A stretch of DNA of 64,000 nt from Candidatus Poribacteria bacterium. Its GTDB lineage: Bacteria > Poribacteria > WGA-4E > WGA-3G. Below, one piece after another: positions 47,765 through 63,381 of the stretch. Below the pieces are notes generated by a model. That model ran no database searches and had not been told where the DNA came from. It was given only the letters and a program-made list of their open reading frames with translations. Within the stretch, counting starts at the first letter, position 1, and each line of letters opens with the position of its first letter. Position numbers and translations under genes: made by a program. The stretch is taken from contig OZ251518.1 in the NCBI GenBank assembly GCA_965242965.1, positions 5,216,001 through 5,280,000 of the forward strand, given 5' to 3'.

Positions 47765-48251
47765 AAACGGCACTTCACCGTAGGGCTTGGGCCCTCGCAT
47801 GCCACACGCGCATCCGAGCGGGTTTCCCTCGCCATGCCTCGCGCAATCCAACGCGCGCTACGAAAAAAACGCTTCCCCTCATCGTAGGGCGAGGGCCTGT
47901 CCCTCGCCATCGCTCGCGCGCCCCAGGCTCTGTAGTTCAGGAGCACCCGCTCCTGAACCGTTTGTGATCAGGCGATCACAAACTACAGACGGGAAACACA
48001 TCGGGACGATAGGGATCGCGGGGGCCTGTCCCCCGCGCTACGAAAAAAAACGCCGCTCGCGCGCTCCAACGCTCGCGGGGGACAGGCCCCCGCGCTACGA
48101 AAAAAACGCTTCCCCTCATCGTAGGGCGAGGGCCTGTCCCTCGCCATCGTTCGATCTCTCCAACGCTCGCGGGGGACAGGCCCCCGCGCTACGGGAACAT
48201 CGAGACCAGGAGGTCTCTCCTACCGAACGCATCGAAATATGAAACACCCTC
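47765..48251. repeat. Composite REP cluster with right TIR
   Basis: REP doublets; ends ATATGAAACACCCTC. Confidence 0.85.
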
Positions 48252-48289: not shown

Positions 48290-50398
48290 TCAAAAAATAT
48301 CCGCCTTTAACAAATGCGCAATCTTCACAAACACAATCCGCTCCCTCTCCCCATCGACATCGCGGTTGTCATTGTAGACGACAAAGAAATTGCTCTCTGG
48401 ACGATATTCATACGCGAAGAGCCCGAAGACACGGCGTTCCTGCTCTAACGTAAATTCCGCGCTGACTCTCGCGTACATCCGCTGCGCAAACTGATAACTG
48501 ACGATGAAACGGCGCGTCCATTCCGAAAGCCGCCACTGTGCGGCATCCGGTTCGCGTTCATGGAGACGTTGGAGGATGAACTCACAGCTGAGTTTCGGCG
48601 TGGGACGAATCGTAATCTCCGGTCGGATGAAGAACGTATCCCGATTATCGCGCACGCCGAATGTGCCGGTGTTCCGAATCTGGACATATTTCGGCGGGAA
48701 CCACCCGGCGAAAAAGCGGACTGTCCTGTCCGTAAACGGTTCATTCTCATCGTTCATGTGATAATACCATTCCGGGCCGAGGAGAAAAAAGAAATCTTTC
48801 ACGCCGAGCAGGCCGCTCACATTCGCGCGGTGGTTCGTCAGTTCACCGGCATGGTTTTCAAGCCGTTCATAAGTTGCCTCGCCGCGGAGCCGCTCCAGCG
48901 CGCCTTTATACTGCTTGTTATAGCGGCTCCTCAAGACGAACCCACGTCTATCAATACGCGGGATAAAGCCGGTTTCGGGGTTAAAATTTTCGCCGATATC
49001 CGCGTAAATCGCCTCAAATGAAAATACATTCGTCCGCCGGTCCAACTGAATGAAGGCTAGGTTATCTGCCGTGCTTTCTGTCATGTCCAAGCCGCCTGCC
49101 TTCCATTCCCGCGCGTATTCCAAATTAAGATTCATATCGGCGGGTAGCCGAATGCGCGCATCCATGCCGCCTGCCCTATCGTAGACACCCCCGCGCTGTT
49201 TGTTTACGCCTAGCACACCGACAGAGGAGGTTTTTCCTAACTCCCGTTGCAACCGAAAAACGGTGTAGTTATAGTCATTAAGAGGCAAGTCTCCCGTCTC
49301 AAGCTCCTTATCTTTATCCTCCGGACCGGCGATGGCTCCCATCAAGGCGATATTGTAATCGCTAACCTTGCCGATGACTTTCCCGCCGCCGACCAGGTTT
49401 TCGACGCGGCGGCTATAGAACAGATCGAGCGGCATTTGGAAGAGTTCGTTTCCTTCAAGAAAAAAGGGACGTTTTTCCGGGAAACGGAGTGGGATATCGG
49501 TTAAATTGACAAGATCCGGGTCTGCCTCAATTTGAGCGAAATCGGGATTGAGCGTCACATCCACCGTGAAATCGGTGCTAGGATACCGCACGTCAATGCC
49601 CGCGTCTGCCTTCATACTGATTGGTTCATCATCGATTTGTTGCGGTTTCAAGGTGGTATAAGGTTTGAATTTCAGGGGACGCTTCGTCACCAATTCGGTA
49701 ATCGGCATCCCGGTCAGCCTTCCAAACCGAGAGACAGCGTATTGGCGTTCGCCCAGGTCTGCCCAGGTCTGCTCTTCGCCGAGAGCTTCATCGTTTCGCC
49801 AGAAGTTGATGCCCCATGTTGTGGCTGTCGGTTCCTTTGGAAAGCGGAGTGATGCAAACGGAATGGCGAGTTCGGCTATCCACTTGTCAGCCTCTTTCGC
49901 GGCTTGTCCTGTCCATTCGCAGTCCCATGAAATGGCGGTGCCGATTTGAGACGAGCCGGTGCGTCGGTTCGCGCCTTCATTCGTGAGCCGCCGGTCCGTC
50001 TGCGTGCCGAGTGGATTCAAGGCGAACGCGTAGCAGTTGCGGTTGTCGAGAAAGGTATCAATGAGGATTTCGACGTGATCATCGGAGAAAAAGAACGAGT
50101 CGCGCCGCGTCTGATTCGCCGCGAGGTTGTGCATATCGTTCTTGAAGCATTCAAAAGCGACGTAGAGATTATTCGCATCGTGTGTGAGATAAACGGTGGT
50201 TGCCTGCGTGGCTTGCGCGCCTCGCTGCGGCTCAAATTGAATGAACTGTCCTGTTTGAGATGCGTGCTGCCAACAGGCATCGTCAAGTTTCCCATCGATG
50301 TTCGGGGGTGTTTCAGTTGAGACAGCGTTAATCTCTCGGCCCGCGGCGGCTATGCTGCAGAGACAGAAGATGCCGAGGATGCTAAGTGCGATTTTCAT
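48290..50398 (-). CDS. DUF5916-like / CBM9-like outer-membrane protein
   Basis: Signal peptide, PNIDGKLDD, ELAIPF..LRF, TLNPDFAQIEAD, FPEKRPFFLEG, FYSRR. Confidence 0.75.
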   Translation of the reverse strand: MKIALSILGIFCLCSIAAAGREINAVSTETPPNIDGKLDDACWQHASQTGQFIQFEPQRGAQATQATTVYLTHDANNLYVAFECFKNDMHNLAANQTRRDSFFFSDDHVEILIDTFLDNRNCYAFALNPLGTQTDRRLTNEGANRRTGSSQIGTAISWDCEWTGQAAKEADKWIAELAIPFASLRFPKEPTATTWGINFWRNDEALGEEQTWADLGERQYAVSRFGRLTGMPITELVTKRPLKFKPYTTLKPQQIDDEPISMKADAGIDVRYPSTDFTVDVTLNPDFAQIEADPDLVNLTDIPLRFPEKRPFFLEGNELFQMPLDLFYSRRVENLVGGGKVIGKVSDYNIALMGAIAGPEDKDKELETGDLPLNDYNYTVFRLQRELGKTSSVGVLGVNKQRGGVYDRAGGMDARIRLPADMNLNLEYAREWKAGGLDMTESTADNLAFIQLDRRTNVFSFEAIYADIGENFNPETGFIPRIDRRGFVLRSRYNKQYKGALERLRGEATYERLENHAGELTNHRANVSGLLGVKDFFFLLGPEWYYHMNDENEPFTDRTVRFFAGWFPPKYVQIRNTGTFGVRDNRDTFFIRPEITIRPTPKLSCEFILQRLHEREPDAAQWRLSEWTRRFIVSYQFAQRMYARVSAEFTLEQERRVFGLFAYEYRPESNFFVVYNDNRDVDGERERIVFVKIAHLLKADIF

Positions 50399-50880
50399 AA
50401 GTTTTCTGGTTTGGGAGCCTCCTTTTTTACGTTGGGGGTATGGTATCAGATTTTGGGTTTTGTGTCAACTGTCGTTATCGGAGAAAAAAATAAATGCCAG
50501 TTGTTTCGTAGGGCGAGGGCCTGTCCCTCGCCATGCAACGATCGCGGGGGACAGGCCCCCGCGCTACGGTATGCAAGGCCGCCTCCCTTTCACCGTAGTG
50601 CGAGGGCCTGTCCCTCGCCGTGCAACGCTCGCGGGGGACAGGCCCCCGCGCTACGGACAATGCAGCAACCATCCGCTTCACCACCGTGCTGATCTCCAAA
50701 AAAACTTGACAAAAAACACCAAATTTGCTAAATTAAAATCACTTTCAACCATTTTTGGCAATTTTTCGCGGGAATTTGACACTTTTTTCGATTTTCCCGC
50801 AAAAAACTTGACAAAAAAACTGAAATTCGCTAAAATAAGACCAGGTTTAACGTTTTTAGCGAATTTCTCGCAAAAAAAAT

Positions 50881-50909
50881 TTGACATTTATCACGTTTCC
50901 GTGTATAAT
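50881..50909 (+). promoter_or_regulatory. Sigma70-type promoter upstream of cohesin cluster
   Basis: TTGACA-17 bp-TATAAT; preceded by duplicated TTGACA-rich blocks. Confidence 0.8.
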
Positions 50910-51525
50910 TAATGCAAACGTGGTGATGCGCGTGAAAAAATCGCGCCACCATGCGCCTGAAATCCGCAAACTTGCTGAACAAGGAACAATACCGTGAACC
51001 AGCGAATTGATTATGCCATTGCGAAAAAGGTCACCGTAGACCTACCCGGGCCCCGCGAGATGCCGCACATCCCGTGCGCGTCTGGCCCGTTTGTCGCGCC
51101 ATCACGAGTTCCCGTTCACCTTAATGCCCAGAAGGGAGGCTCGACCCCCCCCTACACTCCCAGGCGTTAAGCAAATCTTATTCACTTGACAGCGGCGACT
51201 TTTGTCGTCATGTTGTCTTCAACCCCGCACGCATTCTTTGCGTGGCGGGTTATTTTCGTTGCATCGGGGTTGTCCCAGTGCACGTTTTCCCTGCCGCATT
51301 ATCGGTTGCTCCCGTTTTCTTTGTTATTTCCCCTATTTGTCCCATTTCGCTGTTGCGCGCCGCAACCGCTGTTCTCCCATTTTTCAAAGGTGGGGCAAAC
51401 GGGGGAATCTCATTCTGCTCCCACGATAAGAGACTTCCTAATCCTGAAAATCCTGTAAATCCTGATTCAGACAACTGGCGGGGACGCGCCCCGCAAACTG
51501 ACGAAACATAAGGAGATTTAATCCA

Positions 51526-52314
51526 ATGAACAAAAACGTTTTCACTTTCACATTACTACTCGGCGTTTGCTGCCTTTTGGCAACTAGCCTCGCAGCAGCA
51601 CCGCGCGATACCGTGCGCATCACGCCCGCGCAGACGACACCCGCGGCCATCGGCGAACACGTGGTTTTCAACGTGGACATCGTCAGTCAACAGCCCATCG
51701 ATGCCTATCAGTTCACGCTGACGTTCGATCCGACGGCACTGCGCTACGTCTCAAACACCAACGGCGACTATTTGCCGGACGCGTTTGTGGCACCGGCGCA
51801 AGTCAAGGCGAGTCAGGTGACGCTGGTGGCGGTGTCGCTATCGGGCAGCAACATGGGAGAAGGCGCGCTTGCCTCCCTCACGTTTGAAGTGCTATCGCAA
51901 CCAACATCGCCGCTGACGTTCTCCGAGGTGTTGCTACCGGTGACGACAGGCGGACTTGCCGAACCGCAAGTGACTCAGAGCACCACGGGTGCAACGCTGT
52001 CGGAACTACGGCAGACGGTGCAAGAAACCGCCGTGTTGCCGAACTATCCGAACCCGTTCAATCCAGAGACGTGGATACCTTACCAACTCGCCGCCCCGGC
52101 CGAAGTAACGCTGTGCATCTATTCGATGCAGGGGGCACTCGTGCGGGAATTGGCGTTAGGGTATCAGGCATCCGGTGCCTATCAACACCGCTCTCGTGCC
52201 GCGTATTGGGATGGGAAAAACGCGCTCGGTGAGACGGTGGCAAGCGGTGTCTATTTCTATACGTTCACCGCCGGCGATTTTTCTGCAACCGGCAAGATGG
52301 TCATCATGAAATAG
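51526..52314 (+). CDS. Secreted cohesin-domain protein with FlgD-Ig/T9SS-like C-terminal domain
   Basis: Signal peptide; YQFTLTFDPTALRYVS..GDYLP..G.LASLTFEV; LPNYPNPFNPETWIPYQL...YWDGKN..GE.VASGVYFY. Confidence 0.8.
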   Translation: MNKNVFTFTLLLGVCCLLATSLAAAPRDTVRITPAQTTPAAIGEHVVFNVDIVSQQPIDAYQFTLTFDPTALRYVSNTNGDYLPDAFVAPAQVKASQVTLVAVSLSGSNMGEGALASLTFEVLSQPTSPLTFSEVLLPVTTGGLAEPQVTQSTTGATLSELRQTVQETAVLPNYPNPFNPETWIPYQLAAPAEVTLCIYSMQGALVRELALGYQASGAYQHRSRAAYWDGKNALGETVASGVYFYTFTAGDFSATGKMVIMK

Positions 52315-52368
52315 CCGGTATCTTCATTGATACCGCAACGGTTAATGTTCCACGAATGCCAAAGAACC

Positions 52369-52695
52369 AGTAGGAGAGACCTCTGGTCTCGATTCTTCCC
52401 GGTAGGAGAGACCTCTGGTCTCGATGCGTTTCATATCGGGACAGGGATGTCCCTCCTACTGCAACAGGTGCGGTATCGGGACAAGGATGTCCCTCCTACT
52501 GCAACAGAGACAGGTGCGGTATCGGAACAGGGATGTCCCTCCTACTGCACAGCATCCGGTAGGAGAGACCTCTGGTCTCGATGCGTTTCATATCGGGACA
52601 GGGATGTCCCTCCTACTGCAACAGGTGCGGTATCGGGACAGGGATGTCCCTCCTACTGCACAAATACTGGTAGGAGAGCCCTTCCCGGTCTCGAT
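52369..52695. repeat. Tandem array of REP variant GTAGGAGGGACATCCCTGTCCCGATA (minus strand) with GTAGGAGAGACC units
   Basis: ~40-bp unit TATCGGGACAGGGATGTCCCTCCTACTGCAACAGGTGCGG, 5 copies. Confidence 0.9.
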
Positions 52696-52798
52696 GCTGC
52701 ATTAATCATTTGGCAGATTCACAACTTCACGCCGCGGTGGAAGCGAGGATGCCTCGCGTCCATCGCTGGCAATTCTATTTTTTCATAAGGAGTCTATT

Positions 52799-53452
52799 TT
52801 GAAAACAGTAAAAACGCTTTTCATTTTCGCATCAGTCGTCCTCATCGGTATTGCCTTGGGCGGCTGTGATGAGGCACAGCAAATGGTCCCGCCCACCGTT
52901 GAGGACACAACTACGCCGCCTGTCGAACCACCTGCACCTGTGGAACCCCCGGCGGACGGCGGCGAGGAGACAACGATGCCAACCGTCGAACCACCGCCCA
53001 TGGACGACAATGGCGGTGGGGAGACAACGATGCCACCTGTTGCACCGCCTCCCGTAGTTCCCGAGGGCCCTGTTGTCAGCATCATGCCCGCATCGGTGAC
53101 ATCTCCTTCTGTCGGCGAGCAACTGGTAGTGGAAATTCAGGTTGCAGGCGCGGAAAACGTTTTCGGCTATGAACTCACACTGAGGTTTGATGCCGCCGCG
53201 CTCCGCTATGTTGAGAGTGCAAACGGTGACTATCTGCCAGGGGCATTTTTCGTACCATCGCTGAAAAATGACAACGAGATCGCAATTTACGCTTCGGGCG
53301 CGGGGACCAAAGCCAGCGGCACGCTAGCCACGGTGACGTTTGAAGTCGTCTCACGCCAAGTTTCCACGCTGACGCTCGCTAATGTGCTACTCAGTGATGC
53401 CGACGGTGTCAATTCCGAGCCGCACGTCGTCAACGCGGAGATAAGCGAATAA
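52799..53452 (+). CDS. Lipoprotein with Pro/Thr/Glu-rich linker and cohesin domain
   Basis: Lipobox LGGC; PPVEPP linker; GYELTLRFDAAALRYVESANGDYLP..GTLATVTFEV. Confidence 0.8.
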   Translation: MKTVKTLFIFASVVLIGIALGGCDEAQQMVPPTVEDTTTPPVEPPAPVEPPADGGEETTMPTVEPPPMDDNGGGETTMPPVAPPPVVPEGPVVSIMPASVTSPSVGEQLVVEIQVAGAENVFGYELTLRFDAAALRYVESANGDYLPGAFFVPSLKNDNEIAIYASGAGTKASGTLATVTFEVVSRQVSTLTLANVLLSDADGVNSEPHVVNAEISE

Positions 53453-53784
53453 CGGTGACAGGAAACGGTTCTCTCACCGTAGGGCGAGGGCCTATCCCCG
53501 CCATGCACCGATCGCGGGGGACAGGCCCCCGCGCTACGGTATGCAAGGCTGCCTCCGTTTCACCGTAGGGCTTGGGCCCTCGCATGCCACACGCGCATGC
53601 GAGCGGGTTTCCCTCGCCAAGCAACGATCGCGGGGGACAGGCCCCCGCGCTACGCGAAGGGCCGCAGCTCACGGGGACAGGCCCCCGCACTACGGTAGCA
53701 TCGGCGTTTTCCCGATGCCCAGAACCTACAATAAACGCTCACGGGGGATAAGCCCCCACATGACGAAAAAAAGGAGTATCTCTC

Positions 53785-55242
53785 ATGAAAAATCGAACAC
53801 GTCTCTTGTATTTTTTAACCATTATCTTATGCCTCGGCGCAACAGCAATGAGTTACGGACGAGCTGTTGTCTCCGTAAGTCCCTCTCCCGTTGCATCGCC
53901 GGCAGCAGGAAGCACGCTGAAAGTCAACATTCAAATCAGCAGCGGCAGCGGGATTGCAGGGTATGAACTCACCGTAGAGTTTGATACGTCGGCGTTGACG
54001 TATGTCTCTGCCGCGAACGCGACATATCTCCCATCCGGTGCCTTTGCCCCGAGCCCTGCGGTGTCAGGGAACCGCGTGACGCTTACGGCGGCAGCCGCGA
54101 GTGCAGCAACGAAAAGGAGTGGCACCCTCGCTACAGTCACGTTCCGTGTGGTTGCCGCCAAAGCGTCAACGCTGCGCCTTCGGGACGTTGTTTTGTCCGA
54201 CGTGGCCGGAAAAAACTTAGCCTTCAGCACCAGGAACGGACAGGTAGTTAAAAGCAGTGGGGCAGCCTACGATGTGAATCAGGATGGAAAGGTCAACGTC
54301 AGCGACTTAGTCCTCGTCTCACGCAACCTCGGTTCGCGTTCGCCTTCCAACCCGCGAGCCGATGTGAATGGGGATGGACAAGTCAACGTCAGTGACTTAG
54401 TCCTCGTCTCGCGCAACCTCGGTAAGACGGTCGACCCCGGCACCACGCCACCTCCCGTAGTCACAGAGCCTACGCCACCCGAAGGCATGGTGTTCATCCC
54501 CGCAGGACAATTCCAAATGGGCAGCATCGACGATGAAGCACAAAATGATGAACAGCCCGTGCATACCGTCCACATCGACGCATTCTTCATGGACGAACAT
54601 GAAGTCACCAACTTGGAATACAAGGAATTCCTCCTTGAAAATCCACGCTGGCAAAAGAGCCGTATCGATAAGCGATTCCACAACGGCAACTACCTTAAAC
54701 ACTGGAGTGGCAATAACTACCCCTCCGGGAAAGCGAACCATCCGGTGACGTATGTGAGTTGGTATGCTGCCATGGCGTATGCAGAATGGGCAGGGAAACG
54801 GTTGCCGACAGAGGCAGAATGGGAATACGCCGCACGCGGCGGGCTTGCAGGAATGAAGTATCCCTCAGGGAATACGATTTCCACCCGCCAGGCCAACTAC
54901 AATAGGCATGTCGGGGACACTACAGCTGTCGGACGTTATGCGGCGAACGACTACGGGCTCTACGATATGGCAGGGAATGTGTGGGAATGGTGTCTTGATG
55001 AATATGATGCCGATTTCTACTTTGTTTCTCGCAACAGTCGGAATCCGATTTCGGGTGCGCGGACGATCCAATGGGTACTTGATAACTTCGCGAGTATCCC
55101 GACCAACACCTCGCGCGTGTTGCGCGGCGGCAGTTGGTTCAATACAGCGCGGCTTTTGCGCGTCGCCGATCGCGCCTACACTACGCCAACGGGCACGAAC
55201 GACTACATCGGTTTTCGTTGCGCGAGGGCTGTTACTCCCTGA
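53785..55242 (+). CDS. Cohesin + dockerin + FGE-sulfatase (CLec fold) protein; candidate DGR target
   Basis: Signal peptide; cohesin; two DVNxDGxVNVSDLVLV repeats; PEGMVFIPAGQFQMGS, RLPTEAEWEYAARGG, GLYDMAGNVWEW, RVLRGGSW...GFRC. Confidence 0.88.
   Translation: MKNRTRLLYFLTIILCLGATAMSYGRAVVSVSPSPVASPAAGSTLKVNIQISSGSGIAGYELTVEFDTSALTYVSAANATYLPSGAFAPSPAVSGNRVTLTAAAASAATKRSGTLATVTFRVVAAKASTLRLRDVVLSDVAGKNLAFSTRNGQVVKSSGAAYDVNQDGKVNVSDLVLVSRNLGSRSPSNPRADVNGDGQVNVSDLVLVSRNLGKTVDPGTTPPPVVTEPTPPEGMVFIPAGQFQMGSIDDEAQNDEQPVHTVHIDAFFMDEHEVTNLEYKEFLLENPRWQKSRIDKRFHNGNYLKHWSGNNYPSGKANHPVTYVSWYAAMAYAEWAGKRLPTEAEWEYAARGGLAGMKYPSGNTISTRQANYNRHVGDTTAVGRYAANDYGLYDMAGNVWEWCLDEYDADFYFVSRNSRNPISGARTIQWVLDNFASIPTNTSRVLRGGSWFNTARLLRVADRAYTTPTGTNDYIGFRCARAVTP
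55111..55242 (+). other. Putative DGR variable region (VR) with IMH-like end
   Basis: Between RGGSW and GFRC the putative variable codons are NNY (TTC, AAT, CTT, GAT, GCC, TAC, ACT, GGC, AAC, GAC, TAC); avd downstream. Confidence 0.6.
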
Positions 55243-55262
55243 CTCTTAACTCCCTTACCCCT

Positions 55263-55284
55263 TCTGATCGGTTTACCGATCAGA
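55263..55284. other. Perfect hairpin/cruciform just downstream of putative VR
   Basis: TCTGATCGG-TTTA-CCGATCAGA, no U-tract. Confidence 0.75.
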
Positions 55285-55412
55285 CCGTTATGAAATTGGG
55301 GTACGTACTTAATAGACCTAACGCCCAGGCCGGGGTGTGACTCTCGCGGCAAATTCAGGCGAGAAACCCGCTCAAAACGCGGTTTCTCGCCATGCTGCGC
55401 GCCCAGAATTTT

Positions 55413-55760
55413 ATGACAGAATCAACGCTGACAGCCGTGCCAAAACTCTACGATGTCGTCACGTGGTTAATGGGGCGCGTGGAGAAATTCCCGCGCTCGC
55501 AAAAATTTACGTTGGGTGACAGAATCGTGAATCTCGCGTTGGATATTTTGGAATTGCTTATCGAGGCAACTTATACCCGCGACCGGCTTCCGCTTCTTCG
55601 GCGTGCGAACATTCAATTAGAGAAACTTCGCTATCTCATCCGTTTGTCGCATGAATTCAAACTGTTATCAACGAAGCAGTATCGTCATATTTCGGGTGAG
55701 ATTAATGAAGTCGGCAAACGTATCGGGGGTTGGATCAAGAGTCAATCGCGGAGAAAGTAG
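55413..55760 (+). CDS. avd: DGR accessory protein Avd (four-helix bundle)
   Basis: KLYD..W...VEKFPRSQKFTLGDRI...L..ANIQLEKLRYLIRL......Y..IS..INEVGKRIGGW. Confidence 0.85.
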   Translation: MTESTLTAVPKLYDVVTWLMGRVEKFPRSQKFTLGDRIVNLALDILELLIEATYTRDRLPLLRRANIQLEKLRYLIRLSHEFKLLSTKQYRHISGEINEVGKRIGGWIKSQSRRK

Positions 55761-55779
55761 GGCAGCGTAGTCAGGATAT

Positions 55780-57122
55780 CGTAGGGCTTGGGCCCTCGCA
55801 TGCCATACGCGCATGCGAGCGGGTTTCCCTCGCCATCGTTCGCGCAGTCCAACGCTCGCGGGGGACAGGCCCCCGCGCTACGGGCCCTAAAAACGTCCCT
55901 CAAATCGTAGGGCGAGGGCTTGTCCCTCGCCACGCCAATCGTCTGAATCAGGATTTACACGATTATCACGATTAACAAGATTAGGAACTCTAGTCTCCAA
56001 CCGATGCTTAAGGTCCGTAGGACCTTAATGTCTATAGCACCCTGCAATGCGAAGACTCTTAAGGTCTGTAGGACCTTAATGTGCATTCGCGCCGCGTATC
56101 TAGCATCCTATTAAGGACCTAAAGGACCTTGAATACGGTGAAAAGCACGTTTTCTATAGACATTAAGGACCTAAAGGACCTAAAGAGCCGTTTTTTTAAG
56201 AGGTCTCGTCGCCGCGAGAGACATAATCCTGAAAATCCTAGAATCTTGCAAATCCTGATTCAGACAGCTGAGAGATCGCGGGGGACAGGCCCCCGCGCTA
56301 CGGTAAGAAATAGGCAATCGCCGCATGGCACGTAGGGCGAGGGCCTGTCCCTCGCCGTGCCTAAGGTCTGTCAGACCTTAATGTCTATAGCAGCTGCACC
56401 GCAGAGCACCCTAAAGTCCTTTAGGTCCTTAATGTGCCTTGATTCGCTTGGCTGCCATTTCCATTAAGGTCCTAACGGACCTTGAAAACGGTGGCAGATC
56501 TATTTTTCTATAGACATGCAGGACCTAAAGGACCTGAAGAGGCATCCATTGCAAAAAAAATGCTCGCGGCGCGGGAGATGATCTTGTAAATCTTGTAAAT
56601 CCTGCAAATCCTGCTTCAGACAATTAAGATCGCGGGGGACAGGCCCCCGCGCTCCGTCACCTAAAATACCTCTCCTTTACCGTAGGGCGAGGGCCTGTCC
56701 CTCGCCATGCCCCGGTCTGAGCAACAACCATCCGTGTTTTCTGGGTTTCGGGCATTTTTCGCCTAGGTTGAGAGATCGCGGGGGACAGGCCCCCGCGCTA
56801 CGGTATGCAAGGCCGCCTCCGTTTCACCGTAGGGCGAGGGCCTGTCCCTCGCCATGCCAATCGTCTGAAGCAGGATTTACAGGATTATAGGATTTACAAG
56901 ATTAGGGATCCTAGTCTCCAACCGATGCTTTAGGTCCGTAGGACCAAAAGAGGCATCCATTGGAAAAGGAATGCTCGTTGCGCGAGAGATAATCTTTGAA
57001 ATCCTGAAAATCTTGTAAATCCTGCTTCAGAACAGTTAGAGGCACCGCGGGGGACAGGCCCCCGCGCTACGAAAAAAAACGGTTCTTGAGCCATCGCGGG
57101 GGACAGGCCCCCGCACTACGGA
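55780..57122. repeat. Largest composite repeat cluster (GTAG REPs, AGGTCC palindromes, AATCCT 9-mer modules)
   Basis: ~1.3 kb mosaic with internal duplication CCAATCGTCTGAA.CAGGATTTAC...TAGTCTCCAACCGATGCTT. Confidence 0.88.
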
Positions 57123-57288
57123 CGCGCGAACACTTTTTCTCCGCGTGAGTTGCGAGAAACAGACCTCTCTTCCAACAAATATGCAAACGCTGTTTTTTTC
57201 TATGTAAACCAAACCCCACAATTCACGTTAAAACTAACGTTAAAAAATCGCATTCAAAAAGGAGGGCGCGTCTTGAACGCGCTTTTTC

Positions 57289-58449
57289 ATGATACAACAC
57301 TGGACTTTTGACAAGGCAAGGGACAAACCCACTGCCTACATTTACCCTTTACTGATATGTTTGACACTCGCACTGATTTTCCCGGCGATGCTCTGGGCCG
57401 GCCCCGGGCGGACAGGTGCGCAAATCTTGAACCTCGGCGGCGGCGCGCGGGCGAGGGCCCTCGGCGATGCTTTCTCCGCCATTTCCGGTGATGTTACGAC
57501 ATCACTCTGGAATCCGAGCGGTATCGCACAGATGCCGGAGAGCAAACTCCGTTCCGGCCAGAGCGCAGCGCAAGCCTCTATGTTTTATACCGATTACAGC
57601 GCGCCGTTCGGTGAAGCAGGCGAAGGGTTATACTACACCTTTCTCTCCGGCGCGATGCCTCTCGGTGATATGGGGACTATCGGCGCGACACTCCAACTGC
57701 AGGGACAAGGCACGATTGCCGTGACTACCGATTCGCCCGATGTCGTCCGTGAGGAAAGCCTCGGCACGAACTGGGCATTGACGTTCTCTTACGCCGACAG
57801 GATTACCGAAAATCTGGCGGCGGGAATTAGCGGCAAGATGATTCGGATGGTGCTCGGTAGGGAGAACGGGAGTTCTTACGCCGTTGACATGGGGATGCAG
57901 TATCTGCTGCCGGTTGATATGATGCCGATAACCGTCGGCGCAGCGATTCAGAACGTCGGCCCCGGTATTTCGTTTATTGATGAGAATCAGGCTGATCCGT
58001 TGCCGCGCCTCCTCCGCCTCGGCACCTCTATGAGTCTTTTGCGCGCGAAACATCACCACATCCGCTTCGTCAGCGGCATCACGGCGTATATTGATAAACT
58101 TGCCGAAAATGAAGAGGAACTCACCGCAGATTTGGACCGGTTGAACGCCGAACGCGAGGACAAACTGACGCGCGAGCAGCTCCTCTCCGACCGGGGTGTC
58201 GGTATCCGCGCGTTTGAATGGCGACACCTCCAAAAAAACCTCGGCTTAGAATATTGGCTCGGAAACCTGCTGGCACTCCGCGTCGGCTACAAGGCGGAAC
58301 CGGGCATCAACTTGCCCGATCTCACCGACTATTTTACCTACGGCATCGGTATCCAAGTCTACCTTTTCAACCTAGATTTAACTTACGGCCCACGCTTCGG
58401 TCCGAGTCGTGAACGGCTCATTGAGGCGACGGGGATAGTCGTCTTTTAG
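57289..58449 (+). CDS. PorV/PorQ-family outer membrane protein
   Basis: QILNLGGGARARALGDAF, SLWNPSG, AVDMG, QNVGP, DPLP, GLEYW..LALRVGY. Confidence 0.8.
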   Translation: MIQHWTFDKARDKPTAYIYPLLICLTLALIFPAMLWAGPGRTGAQILNLGGGARARALGDAFSAISGDVTTSLWNPSGIAQMPESKLRSGQSAAQASMFYTDYSAPFGEAGEGLYYTFLSGAMPLGDMGTIGATLQLQGQGTIAVTTDSPDVVREESLGTNWALTFSYADRITENLAAGISGKMIRMVLGRENGSSYAVDMGMQYLLPVDMMPITVGAAIQNVGPGISFIDENQADPLPRLLRLGTSMSLLRAKHHHIRFVSGITAYIDKLAENEEELTADLDRLNAEREDKLTREQLLSDRGVGIRAFEWRHLQKNLGLEYWLGNLLALRVGYKAEPGINLPDLTDYFTYGIGIQVYLFNLDLTYGPRFGPSRERLIEATGIVVF

Positions 58450-58458
58450 AGGATAAAT

Positions 58459-59220
58459 ATGAAAATCTATACGCGAACCGTGGTCCTTGCGATGGTGTGC
58501 TGTTTGGTATCCGGGGTTTGTCTTGCTACGGATGAAGCGGCTGTAAACGCTCTCAACGGGTTTTATCTTGAGTCTGCGCTGGGGAATCGGACATTGGAGT
58601 CAGCGGATGCGGCGATACCGCTGAAATCGCCGAACGAGGCGTTTCTCTATTCGCTCGTTTTGCCGGGCGCGGGGCAATTTTATACGGGTGCGAAGCGCGG
58701 CTATCTCTACGCCGCCGCCGAGGTAGGGTTGCTCGCCACCTACTTTATCTTGCGCAATAGTGCCGCGAGCACGCGCGATGAATATCGCGATGTCGTCAGG
58801 CAGCACGTTATTTTTGACGGCCCCGGGTCTTTTGATAATTGGGATCTGGTTGAAGATTTCGAGCACGCGACGCAGTATGAAAACTGGAACCATGTCTACG
58901 ATTCTGAAGCGACACGGACGCGGACAGGAAAGTGGTATTGGGAGGACGCGCGGCCTTTTAAAGACGAGGAAGACATCGCTATCGATTTTGACTCGCGCCA
59001 CCGATTGGAGGCGTTCGATCTTCGGCAACAGGCGAATGACAAGTTTGAACTCGCACGCACCTTCCTCGGCATGGCGATTTTGAACCACGTCGTCAGCGCG
59101 ATTGATGCGCGTATCACAACCAAAAGTTGGAATCGGAAGCAGGCGCGGGCGAACTCTCTGGAGATAGGCGTGCAAGCAGGCGCGACGGAAAGCGCGGTAA
59201 TGCTGCGGAAATGGTTCTAG
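58459..59220 (+). CDS. Hypothetical secreted/membrane protein
   Basis: Signal peptide; KSP..AFLYSLVLPGAGQFY; NHVVSAIDA. Confidence 0.7.
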   Translation: MKIYTRTVVLAMVCCLVSGVCLATDEAAVNALNGFYLESALGNRTLESADAAIPLKSPNEAFLYSLVLPGAGQFYTGAKRGYLYAAAEVGLLATYFILRNSAASTRDEYRDVVRQHVIFDGPGSFDNWDLVEDFEHATQYENWNHVYDSEATRTRTGKWYWEDARPFKDEEDIAIDFDSRHRLEAFDLRQQANDKFELARTFLGMAILNHVVSAIDARITTKSWNRKQARANSLEIGVQAGATESAVMLRKWF

Positions 59221-61665: not shown

Positions 61666-63381
61666 ATGGCTTACGATAGTTTAACGTTACGCCTTGTCAC
61701 AGAAGAGCTTCGCCAAACGCTTTTAGGTGGCACCATCAGGCATATTGAACAGGCAAACCCGACGACTTTTTCGTTCAAGATTGCGCGCGGGGTTGAGACG
61801 CGTTGGCTGACGCTCTCGGCGCATTCGGTTCATGCGCGCGCACATCTCATCCAGCGGCCGCCGCCGGGACAGAAGCAGTCCTACCTCGCCGATTTCCTCA
61901 CGACGCATCTGAGACGCGGGACTATCACCGAAATTGCGCAACTCGGCTGGGATCGGATTCTGAAAATCACTGTTCAACCCGTATCCGATGAACCGATTCA
62001 GCCGTCCCCGAAGGCAATCCTCGCGGAGTTTATGGGGAAACATAGTAACATTATCCTGATTGATGCGACAGACGACAGGATTTTGGAGAGTCTCAAGCAT
62101 ATTGACGAAACGCAAAGTCGGCACCGAGAGGTTTTGCCGGGCGAAACCTACTGTTTGCCGCCGCAACAGGAGAAGGCAGCCCCGTTGGAACTTGATGAGA
62201 CAGGTTTCGCTGCCATCGCTGAAAGTCTCCCACAAGTAACGTGGCGCGGGCTGTTCAATAACATCGATGGGCTCAGTCCGACGCTCGCGAAAGAAATCAT
62301 CGCGCGGGCAGAAGAGGTGCAGCTCTGGGCTGCTTATCAGCAGGTTATCGCCTATTTTGACGCGCGCCACATCTCCCCGCAGTTGCTCCTTGATGGAACA
62401 GAACCGATTGACACATCGCCGATGCCGCTGCATCAATTGCCGAATGCTACCTCCCAAACGTTTGACACGATGAGCGAGGCACTCTGTGCCTATTACGATG
62501 CGATGACGTTGAAAGAGGCGATGGCATCGGAACGGCGCGCGCTCACGCAGGCGTTGGATAAACAGCGCGCATTGCTCAAGCGGAAAGAGAAGGGGTTGAC
62601 GACAGATTTGGCACGTGCCGAAAAAGCCGCGGATTATCGCGTTCAAGGCGAACTTATCCTTGCGAATTTGCATCGCATTACCCGCGGGCAAACGGAGGTA
62701 GAACTGCAAAACTACTACAGTCCGAACTTGGAGACAATTTCGATCTCGCTGAATCCGGAACGGAGCCCTTCCGATAACGCGCAAGCATATTTCAAGAAAT
62801 ACACGAAAGCGAAACGGGGACATTCGCGCATCTTGCAACTCATTGCCGAGGTGGAAGCGGAGAAGAAGGTGCTGCAATTGGAAACCGCCAAACTTGAAGC
62901 GGCGAATTCATTGGACGCGCTCCAGCAGCTTCGCACGGAATTTGTCGCGAACGGGTATCTCAGGGCGCGGCAGCAGAACAGACAGAAGCAGCCGTTAAGC
63001 GAAGGACCCTTCCGAAAATACACCTCTGCGAACGGGTTTCAGATGTATGTCGGCAGGAACAGCCAGTCAAACGATTTGCTCTTGCGCCAGATTGCGAAGC
63101 CGCGCGATATGTGGTTGCATGCGAAGCAAATCCACGGATCACACGTCATCGTCCGGAACCCGGAAAACCGTCAGGATATTCCAATGCCGACGTTGTTGCA
63201 AGCGGCGCAGCTCGCCGCCTATTACAGCAAAGCGCACCATGCAAGTCATGTCCCCGTAGACTACACGTGGGCGCGTTACGTAGTGAAGCGGAAGGGCAAC
63301 GTTGCGGGGTATGTGCATTACACGCATGAAAAGACGTTATATGTGGAGCCTGCGCTTCCCTCGTCAAAAGCGGAGTCATAG
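61666..63381 (+). CDS. rqcH: Ribosome quality-control factor RqcH (NFACT/FbpA)
   Basis: MAYD, DRIL, EFMGKHSNIIL, NAQAYFKKY, VGRNSQSND, WLHA..HGSHV, VDYT. Confidence 0.92.
   Translation: MAYDSLTLRLVTEELRQTLLGGTIRHIEQANPTTFSFKIARGVETRWLTLSAHSVHARAHLIQRPPPGQKQSYLADFLTTHLRRGTITEIAQLGWDRILKITVQPVSDEPIQPSPKAILAEFMGKHSNIILIDATDDRILESLKHIDETQSRHREVLPGETYCLPPQQEKAAPLELDETGFAAIAESLPQVTWRGLFNNIDGLSPTLAKEIIARAEEVQLWAAYQQVIAYFDARHISPQLLLDGTEPIDTSPMPLHQLPNATSQTFDTMSEALCAYYDAMTLKEAMASERRALTQALDKQRALLKRKEKGLTTDLARAEKAADYRVQGELILANLHRITRGQTEVELQNYYSPNLETISISLNPERSPSDNAQAYFKKYTKAKRGHSRILQLIAEVEAEKKVLQLETAKLEAANSLDALQQLRTEFVANGYLRARQQNRQKQPLSEGPFRKYTSANGFQMYVGRNSQSNDLLLRQIAKPRDMWLHAKQIHGSHVIVRNPENRQDIPMPTLLQAAQLAAYYSKAHHASHVPVDYTWARYVVKRKGNVAGYVHYTHEKTLYVEPALPSSKAES

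Follow-up and report, generated by a model that had tools for sequence, protein, structure and literature searches.

Several of the parts brought together at the locus described here are known from other systems. In the diversity-generating retroelement (DGR) of Bordetella phage BPP-1, composed of Mtd, Avd, a template repeat (TR) and a reverse transcriptase (RT), the target is recognized via the initiation of mutagenic homing (IMH) sequence and a downstream hairpin. Adaptor scaffoldins, such as those of Ruminococcus flavefaciens and Acetivibrio cellulolyticus, combine one or more cohesins with a dockerin in a single polypeptide. DGR-diversified C-type lectin (CLec) proteins carrying effector domains have reportedly been described by Vallota-Eastman et al. 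in 2020, and to our knowledge the surface tethers of DGR variable proteins are for the most part known only where they are transmembrane segments or lipoprotein anchors. The closest described targets are TvpA of Treponema denticola and the other members of "category b", which, in the available part of the source, are non-catalytic FGE-sulfatase/CLec proteins with the variable region (VR) at the extreme C-terminus, have Avd beside the target, and include several non-adjacent or remote targets served by one template (PMC5758913). Comparable features are found in a group of four genes, ORF1 to ORF4, located in a stretch of 64,000 nucleotides (C1:5216001-5280000, hereafter the window) of a Candidatus Poribacteria genome: three genes encode cohesin proteins, the third of which (ORF3) also has a dockerin and an FGE-sulfatase/CLec domain, and the fourth is avd. 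We consider it probable that ORF3 is a secreted DGR lectin of the TvpA type borne on a cohesin-dockerin module, and that the cassette to which it belonged is truncated in this genome.

The genome under study (G000; 5,700,154 bases in two contigs, estimated to be 94.66% complete, not closed) was compared with one genome of the same genus (G002), two from related genera (G004 and G009) and one from the same family (G007), and Avd was surveyed in 31 genomes of the order. Domains were called from hidden Markov model (HMM) matches over curated cut-offs (Pfam and NCBIfam). The four genes all lie on the forward strand, at the coordinates given by an earlier interpretation based on the DNA letters alone (the sequence-only reading), which had proposed three co-oriented secreted cohesin proteins followed by avd, and their domains score above the Pfam or NCBIfam cut-offs and are not chance matches. 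The same reading had presumed a host-associated bacterium, and the organism is indeed a sponge symbiont: a sequencing run labelled as a sponge metagenome contains near-identical pieces.

As in the adaptor scaffoldins, a cohesin and a dockerin are present in one secreted protein, the dockerin has two duplicated calcium-binding repeats, and there are separate anchors carrying only a cohesin. ORF3 differs from those proteins in that its cohesin is N-terminal and stands directly before the dockerin and in that the payload is a predicted hypervariable lectin; the locus also differs in having no carbohydrate-active enzyme payloads and in its diderm-type envelope context (a lipoprotein anchor and a tail resembling those of the type IX secretion system, T9SS). 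Unlike the "category b" targets, ORF3 has a cohesin-dockerin head at its N-terminus, which is not among the appended domains dealt with in the available part of PMC5758913, and no RT or TR was found in G000. FGE/CLec targets of DGRs, Avd, remote targets and caspase-CLec targets are already known. A cohesin-dockerin head on a DGR target, or Poribacteria with a DGR or a dockerin, was not found in the literature searched: the words "cohesin" and "dockerin" do not occur in the main text of PMC5758913 or in 11 of the 13 supplement files of PMC8144416, nor do "cohesin", "dockerin" and "Poribacteria" occur in the main text of PMC10907252. If this tether is real, the hypervariable head would be a detachable and exchangeable module of a larger docking network, and two well-studied systems, DGRs and cellulosome-type assembly, would be joined in an uncultured sponge symbiont.

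The variable region of ORF3 and the avd gene

Judging by its sequence, the C-terminus of ORF3 is a genuine DGR variable region. Three independent lines of evidence, namely TR/VR pairs present in relatives, paralogues in G000 and homologues from public assemblies, point to this, the first two bearing on adenine specificity indirectly, and they bear out the diversified binding head postulated by the sequence-only reading. All 15 TR-to-VR substitutions in G004 and all 18 in G009, where there is also one 3-nt gap, are located at TR adenines; the same is true of 17 of the 18 in G007, which has a 1-nt gap and has kept the TR with no RT nearby. When the three genomes are pooled, 50 of 51 substitutions are adenine-specific. 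The genome under study has 16 blocks of 111 nt sharing a common constant frame and fixed flanks, each of which ends an FGE domain. In the five most similar blocks, 36 columns vary, and 27 of these correspond to adenines of the G004 TR, which has 30 adenine columns (Fisher p 5.6e-15). Thirteen close homologues, 81-95% identical overall to ORF3, diverge from it unevenly: the identity is high for the cohesin (84-98%), the dockerin (80-100%) and the FGE domain (82-98%), and only 44-69% for the VR (residues 448-479). The positions at which these homologues have at least five residue types are those arising from A-containing TR codons in G004.

The VR and the TR also differ at their 3' ends. The VR ends in GCGCGAGGG, which corresponds to the IMH, and the TR in GCGCGAAGA, the terminal letters being GAGGG in the VRs and GAAGA in the TRs. 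The hairpin located 3' of the VR is kept at four loci of G000, the third remote copy having one stem mismatch, and stem-loops with a 4-nt loop but different stem sequences occur at the equivalent place in G004 and G007. The G+C-rich 3' end of the VR differing from the TR end, the stem-loop with its 4-nt loop past the VR and the presence of Avd are shared with BPP-1; the present system differs from it in being chromosomal, in having the hairpin about 30 nt past the end of the VR, and in the order target-avd-RT-TR seen in the relatives.

ORF4 is, on the evidence of its profile scores and relatives, a bona fide DGR Avd. It gave 118 bits with the DGR Avd equivalog NF033474 (cut-off 80), being the sole Avd match in the genome, and is 74% and 78% identical over its full length to the Avds of G004 and G009, which belong to complete DGRs. 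Among the 31 genomes of the order, Avd scored over the cut-off in G000, G004 and G009. In the latter two genomes, an FGE target is accompanied by Avd and an RVT_1 reverse transcriptase, the RT starting inside avd or 62 nt past it, and the TR is downstream of the RT. Over the dockerin and the FGE domain, ORF3 shows 62% identity to the target protein of the complete DGR in G004. The sequence-only reading had also allowed that this gene might be a generic four-helix-bundle protein in a genome with no DGR: the first part of that proviso falls with the identification of a real Avd, while the second stands in so far as no complete DGR is encoded, since neither an RT nor a TR was found. The limits that it gave for the dockerin (54268-54425) and the VR (55111-55230) agree with those obtained from the HMM scans, which matched all three of the domains that it had proposed for ORF3, and from the 111-nt block (Table 1).

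Table 1. Features of the locus, with positions counted from the first letter of the window
Feature	Position	Strand	Description
ORF1	51526..52314	+	262 aa; signal-like N-terminus, cohesin at aa 40-135, C-terminal FlgD_ig / T9SS type A sorting-like tail at aa 174-260
ORF2	52799..53452	+	217 aa; N-terminal lipoprotein-type signal (Cys23), stalk of ~70 residues rich in Pro, Thr and Glu, cohesin at aa 98-207
ORF3	53785..55242	+	485 aa; signal-like N-terminus, cohesin, dockerin, Pro/Thr linker, FGE-sulfatase/CLec; putative DGR variable protein
ORF3 cohesin	53890-54201	+	aa 36-139, E 9.7e-11 (Pfam)
ORF3 dockerin	54268-54420	+	Dockerin_1, aa 162-212, E 1.3e-17, 64.2 bits (cut-off 22.9); two near-identical Ca-loop repeats
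ORF3 FGE-sulfatase/CLec domain	54481-55227	+	PF03781, aa 233-481, E 2.1e-65
VR of ORF3	55108..55232	+	last 40 codons; 111-nt block 55113-55223; variable columns 55132-55208; G+C-rich 3' end
Hairpin	55263..55284	+	9-bp stem, 4-nt loop (TTTA), 3' of the VR
avd (ORF4)	55392..55760	+	122 aa, intact frame; bAvd E 3.8e-23 (Pfam)
REP-type palindromic repeat array	55761..57288		at the place of the RT and TR in relatives
PorV-like outer-membrane protein	57289..58449	+	PF19572, 27.3 bits against a cut-off of 27 (borderline); first gene past the REP array; context only

The cohesin-dockerin module and its possible partners

The three cohesins of the locus were recognized with scores of 32.3, 41.9 and 42.5 bits (cut-off 24.1), and ORF1, ORF2 and ORF3 all have hydrophobic signal-like N-termini. 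In ORF1 (Cohesin E 1.3e-7, 32.3 bits), the C-terminal tail is matched by FlgD_ig (PF13860, E 3.1e-7) and, with 31.6 bits (cut-off 23), by TIGR04183, the T9SS type A sorting domain, so that the FlgD-Ig/T9SS-like tail noticed beforehand in the letters holds. ORF1 has an 88.6% identical ortholog in G002, and its tail is 69% identical over 96 aa to that of a 199-aa neighbour located upstream of the G004 DGR target. ORF2 (Cohesin E 1.5e-10) belongs to a family of single-cohesin lipoproteins of about 200 aa, with 91 matches at E<=1e-10. Its signal runs to ...ALGGC, the lipobox Cys23 being kept in all 36 of the 36 aligned homologues; the protein is therefore predicted to be a bacterial lipoprotein, as had been proposed together with its Pro-rich stalk. 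The ORF3 dockerin resembles cellulosomal dockerins of solved structure (E 3.6e-6 to 1e-3).

The neighbourhood is conserved in related genomes. In G002 (C1:1408000-1427500, reverse strand), the orthologs of ORF1 and ORF2 are followed by four tandem cohesin-dockerin-FGE genes, two of which encode two FGE domains, and there are six VR-like blocks; no avd, RT or TR was found at this locus. In G004, a protein with an FlgD_ig tail precedes the dockerin-FGE target.

Cohesins and dockerins occur well beyond the window: G000 has 13 cohesin and 59 dockerin matches as well as 40 FlgD_ig tails, and for 8 of these 13 cohesins the open frame continues directly into a dockerin. A search was made with the ORF3 head (residues 1-230, comprising the signal, the cohesin and the dockerin). 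Among the best 120 homologues listed, 67 combine Dockerin_1, Cohesin and FGE-sulfatase, and the other 53 have a cohesin, usually with a dockerin, either alone or before WD40-type, LRR, LDL-B/SGL, VWA, Peptidase_M23 or FlgD_ig/Por_Secre_tail domains; the varied payloads were found among homologues P0017-P0120. The fact that so many payloads are carried by the same head suggests that it is a general mounting module in a non-cellulosomal docking network, the DGR lectin being one payload among others. Neither a carbohydrate-active enzyme payload nor a multi-cohesin scaffoldin was found at this locus, where there is one cohesin per protein; of the 59 dockerin matches, that of ORF3 is the one whose protein was examined for enzyme domains. 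The sequence-only reading had mentioned neither this general role of the head nor the remote targets dealt with below.

Two other loci of the genome are similar to the one described here. A second cohesin-dockerin-FGE gene (C1:587628-588978) has a 511-aa frame, and at C1:2676793-2680465 the gene of a cohesin+FlgD_ig protein comes before that of a dockerin-FGE protein and a further two FGE genes. Throughout G000 there are frames (e.g., C1:4919005-4919595, 1863479-1864048, and 1638395-1638973) in which an FlgD_ig tail comes no more than about 250-400 nt after a dockerin; since such frames are numerous, the two domains form a recurrent C-terminal pair in this genome.

In the mechanism that we propose, the C-terminal ligand-binding surface of ORF3 was rewritten by adenine-specific mutagenic retrohoming, and the dockerin would plug into a cohesin of the envelope, namely that of the ORF2 lipoprotein with its Pro-rich stalk or that of ORF1 with its T9SS-like tail. 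Docking to either of these proteins would hold the variable lectin head on the outside of the cell. ORF3's own cohesin might in turn serve as a socket, for another ORF3 if the protein chains into polymers, as the sequence-only reading had suggested, or for one of the approximately 50 other dockerin proteins of the genome. The head would be likely to bind sugars or surface structures belonging to the sponge host, to other microbes or to phages.

The pairing of the ORF3 dockerin with the cohesin of ORF1, of ORF2 or of ORF3 is inferred from the architecture of the proteins and the conserved neighbourhood. An uncontrolled complex prediction made with the ORF2 cohesin (aa 88-217) and the ORF3 dockerin (aa 153-222), with two Ca and the proteins' own alignments, gave values of 0.14 and 0.16, the mark being 0.32; these speak neither for nor against binding. 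Three observations weigh against the proposed mechanism. The genes are set apart by spacers of 333-485 nt filled with repetitive extragenic palindromic (REP) repeats and show no tight operon packing. The N-terminus of the G004 target has no similarity to the ORF3 cohesin, which is thus a non-obligatory part of this type of DGR target. Lastly, since there are 13 cohesin and 59 dockerin matches in the genome, the partners of the ORF3 dockerin may lie elsewhere.

These counts, together with the 8 of 13 cohesins directly followed by a dockerin, the 53 listed homologues, out of 120, in which the head bears other payloads, and the fact that the local cohesins are mutually only 34-50% identical, would fit a different explanation, in which the local cohesins and dockerin do not pair: ORF3 would dock to the genome-wide network, or its head would act as a rigid module for structure or secretion, with paralogue expansion alone accounting for the neighbourhood. 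We hold this to be possible but rather doubtful, given that the order ORF1-ORF2-(Coh-Doc-FGE)n is conserved in a genome of the same genus, that a dockerin-FGE protein again stands next to a cohesin+FlgD_ig protein at the second locus (C1:2.677 Mb), and that the single-cohesin lipoproteins resembling ORF2 have no evident role except that of a socket.

Extending the proposed display of ORF3 to the whole phylum is a more tentative step. Poribacteria might have a non-cellulosomal cohesin-dockerin plug-in system in which interchangeable binding payloads are mounted on envelope sockets, and in which a trans-acting chromosomal DGR diversifies at least four loci, i.e., the lectin head and secreted caspase-lectins, forming a modular, antibody-like repertoire of which individual strains either keep the generator or freeze the products.

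Remote targets and the missing RT and TR

Three genes some 4 Mb from the locus, whose VR blocks are at C1:1244306, 1252981, and 1260896, share the VR frame and the VR 3' end of ORF3, and about 100 nt past the VR, hairpin included, are also common to the four genes. All three encode Peptidase_C14 (caspase)-FGE proteins with signal-like N-termini, one of which also has PEGA. Because they have the same VR frame, 3' end and hairpin as ORF3, these caspase-lectin genes are interpreted as remote DGR targets, which indicates that one template once served at least four genes. They lie in a cluster of secreted caspase (Peptidase_C14)/PEGA/DUF4384/FGE-sulfatase genes (C1:1242769-1261028), and G000 has about 30 FGE-domain genes altogether (40 tblastn segments). 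In the available part of the respective sources, remote targets are in use in non-phage DGRs (PMC5758913), and caspase/CLec targets occur in multicellular bacteria (Dore et al., 2024, PMC10907252), which matches what was found here. The remote targets of G000 are like the CLec "antigen sensor" proteins with caspase or other effectors described in the latter source, as far as available, in their Peptidase_C14-FGE composition; they are unlike them in having signal-like N-termini, in sharing a template with a cohesin-dockerin surface protein and in belonging to a sponge symbiont (PMC10907252).

The generator itself was not detected in G000. RVT_1 (PF00078) had no matches across the 5.70-Mb genome, a protein search for an RT likewise gave none, and tblastn searches of the genome with the RTs of G004 and G009 reached a best E of 0.3. 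No second copy of the VR was found by BLAST within the window, and a BLAST search of the genome for the TR was negative. A VR/TR profile gave 32 matches over the genome, all the strong ones being located behind an FGE domain, so that none of them is a TR. The TR spacer conserved in G004 and G007 gave only short, chance-level matches in G000 (best E 0.036). Nucleotide homology to the G004 and G009 cassettes extends through avd and ends at its last codons (~55747), and the REP array, which alone fills 55761-57288, occupies the place where these relatives have the RT and the TR. As assembled, the retroelement stops immediately after avd. With the RT, the TR and the spacer missing, the VRs of G000, as encoded, are therefore frozen. 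The two REP core motifs have 4486 and 2454 matches in the genome, 73 and 39 of them in the window (at most two mismatches, both strands, so that these figures are about twice the copy numbers). REP repeats are also present in the spacers at 52315-52798, 53453-53784, 50400-51500, and 47787-48242.

Various stages of loss were found in the relatives. The G007 locus (L016 7954-8647, C1) is a second decayed DGR, in which a VR is succeeded by a partial match to Avd (64 bits, covering profile positions 4-74) and then by the TR; contig C1 of that genome has no RT match, the only ones (~30% identity) being on C2. Neither Avd nor the RT of the cassette was found in the two genomes that share a genus with G000. 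Going by these gene contents, one family holds complete cassettes (G004 and G009), an avd-only remnant (G000), a remnant that has lost the RT and kept the TR (G007), and a repertoire with no generator (G002). Since complete and truncated cassettes occur side by side in one family, they provide a natural series on the fate of a diversified repertoire once the generator has been lost.

Some of the data speak against the truncation being a property of the organism rather than of the assembly. With two contigs and an estimated completeness of 94.66%, the RT and the TR may have escaped assembly or may belong to a strain living alongside. In the RT clusters P0256 and P0253, the longest contigs measure 81,619 and 7,612 nt, as do those of P0004/P0129 and P0122, respectively, which are close homologues of ORF3 and ORF2. 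In view of these equal contig sizes, from which alone the co-location is deduced, close strains probably retain an RT beside this locus. Lastly, in Logan contigs from four runs the base at 55174, 55175, and 55177 is A, possible sources of which are a TR, the VR of another strain or a paralogue. If present on one contig, the three A would give two VR codons AAC AAC. The four runs were taken from the 21 sequencing runs listed, all of them available as Logan contigs and none of them listed as containing RNA; they provide short pieces only, confounded by FGE paralogues and REP repeats, and none crosses the avd/REP junction cleanly. A metagenome scan with Avd returned 45 loci with a top identity of 56%, which means that no DNA of a close strain was among them.

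It might accordingly be supposed that the DGR is fully active, the RT and the TR being elsewhere (in an unassembled region, on an extrachromosomal element or in a mixed-strain haplotype), acting in trans on the VRs of ORF3 and of the three remote genes, and both missed by the assembly. The intact avd, the VR-type end and hairpin kept at four loci, the strong hypervariability of the VR among near-identical homologues, the contig sizes linking RT clusters to close ORF2 and ORF3 homologues, and the incompleteness of the assembly in its two contigs would all agree with this supposition, as would the non-phage DGRs recorded in the available part of Wu et al. (2018, PMC5758913), in which the RT and its remote targets can be over 100 kb apart. 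We nevertheless regard it as unlikely: REP repeats occupy the RT position of G004 and G009 and homology breaks off at the avd stop, the 5.70 Mb searched yielded neither an RT, whatever its kind, nor a TR or a spacer, both genomes of the same genus have neither Avd nor this RT, and G007 provides an example of an RT-less remnant in the family.

Fold of the FGE domain and neighbouring genes

In sequence comparisons with solved structures, ORF3 matched FGE (5.3e-35), PorK (7.1e-23), and Treponema TvpA (2y3c, 5e-13). When ORF3 is aligned to the solved FGE, the Cys-x4-Cys stretch of the enzyme, the cysteines of which we take to be the catalytic ones, faces a 3-residue gap and Cys-free variable residues. 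Because this stretch has been replaced, the ORF3 domain is assigned to the non-catalytic C-type lectin folds of the TvpA type, i.e., to a binding fold and not to an enzyme. The identification of ORF3 as GldK/PorK was tried and rejected (TIGR03525, 149 bits against a cut-off of 350), and a structure prediction from a 14-row alignment was unusable (mean predicted local distance difference test score 35.3). That ORF3 is instead a nonheme iron enzyme of the SUMF1/EgtB/PvdO type in a cellulosome-like enzyme complex, with the avd-like gene encoding a generic four-helix-bundle protein, is very improbable: the public annotation of homologue P0070 as a SUMF1/EgtB/PvdO family nonheme iron enzyme and the strong FGE-sulfatase and EgtB/PvdO-type HMM matches, though all of these are under equivalog cut-offs, have to be set against the disappearance of the Cys-x4-Cys stretch with hypervariable residues in its place, the score of ORF4 over the DGR-specific Avd equivalog cut-off together with its 74-78% identity to Avds adjoining an RT, and the A-specific TR/VR pattern seen in relatives.

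As regards export, a T9SS-type route for ORF1 is no more than possible, with the PorV-like protein as a candidate shuttle: of the two components of the machinery considered, the PorV-like match is at the cut-off and a SprA-like frame of 2232 aa is below the threshold (67 bits against 200). The PorV-like gene and a DUF5683-like protein (25.4 bits, under the cut-off of 26.7) occupy 57289-59220, directly past the REP array. A promoter and terminator scan of 51000-57400 gave two and seven sites, respectively, with no excess over shuffles. On the upstream side, the neighbour at 48290-50398 on the reverse strand encodes a 702-aa CBM9/DUF5916 protein, and farther downstream, at 61666-63381 on the forward strand, there is an NFACT-family protein with the N-terminal and RNA-binding domains.

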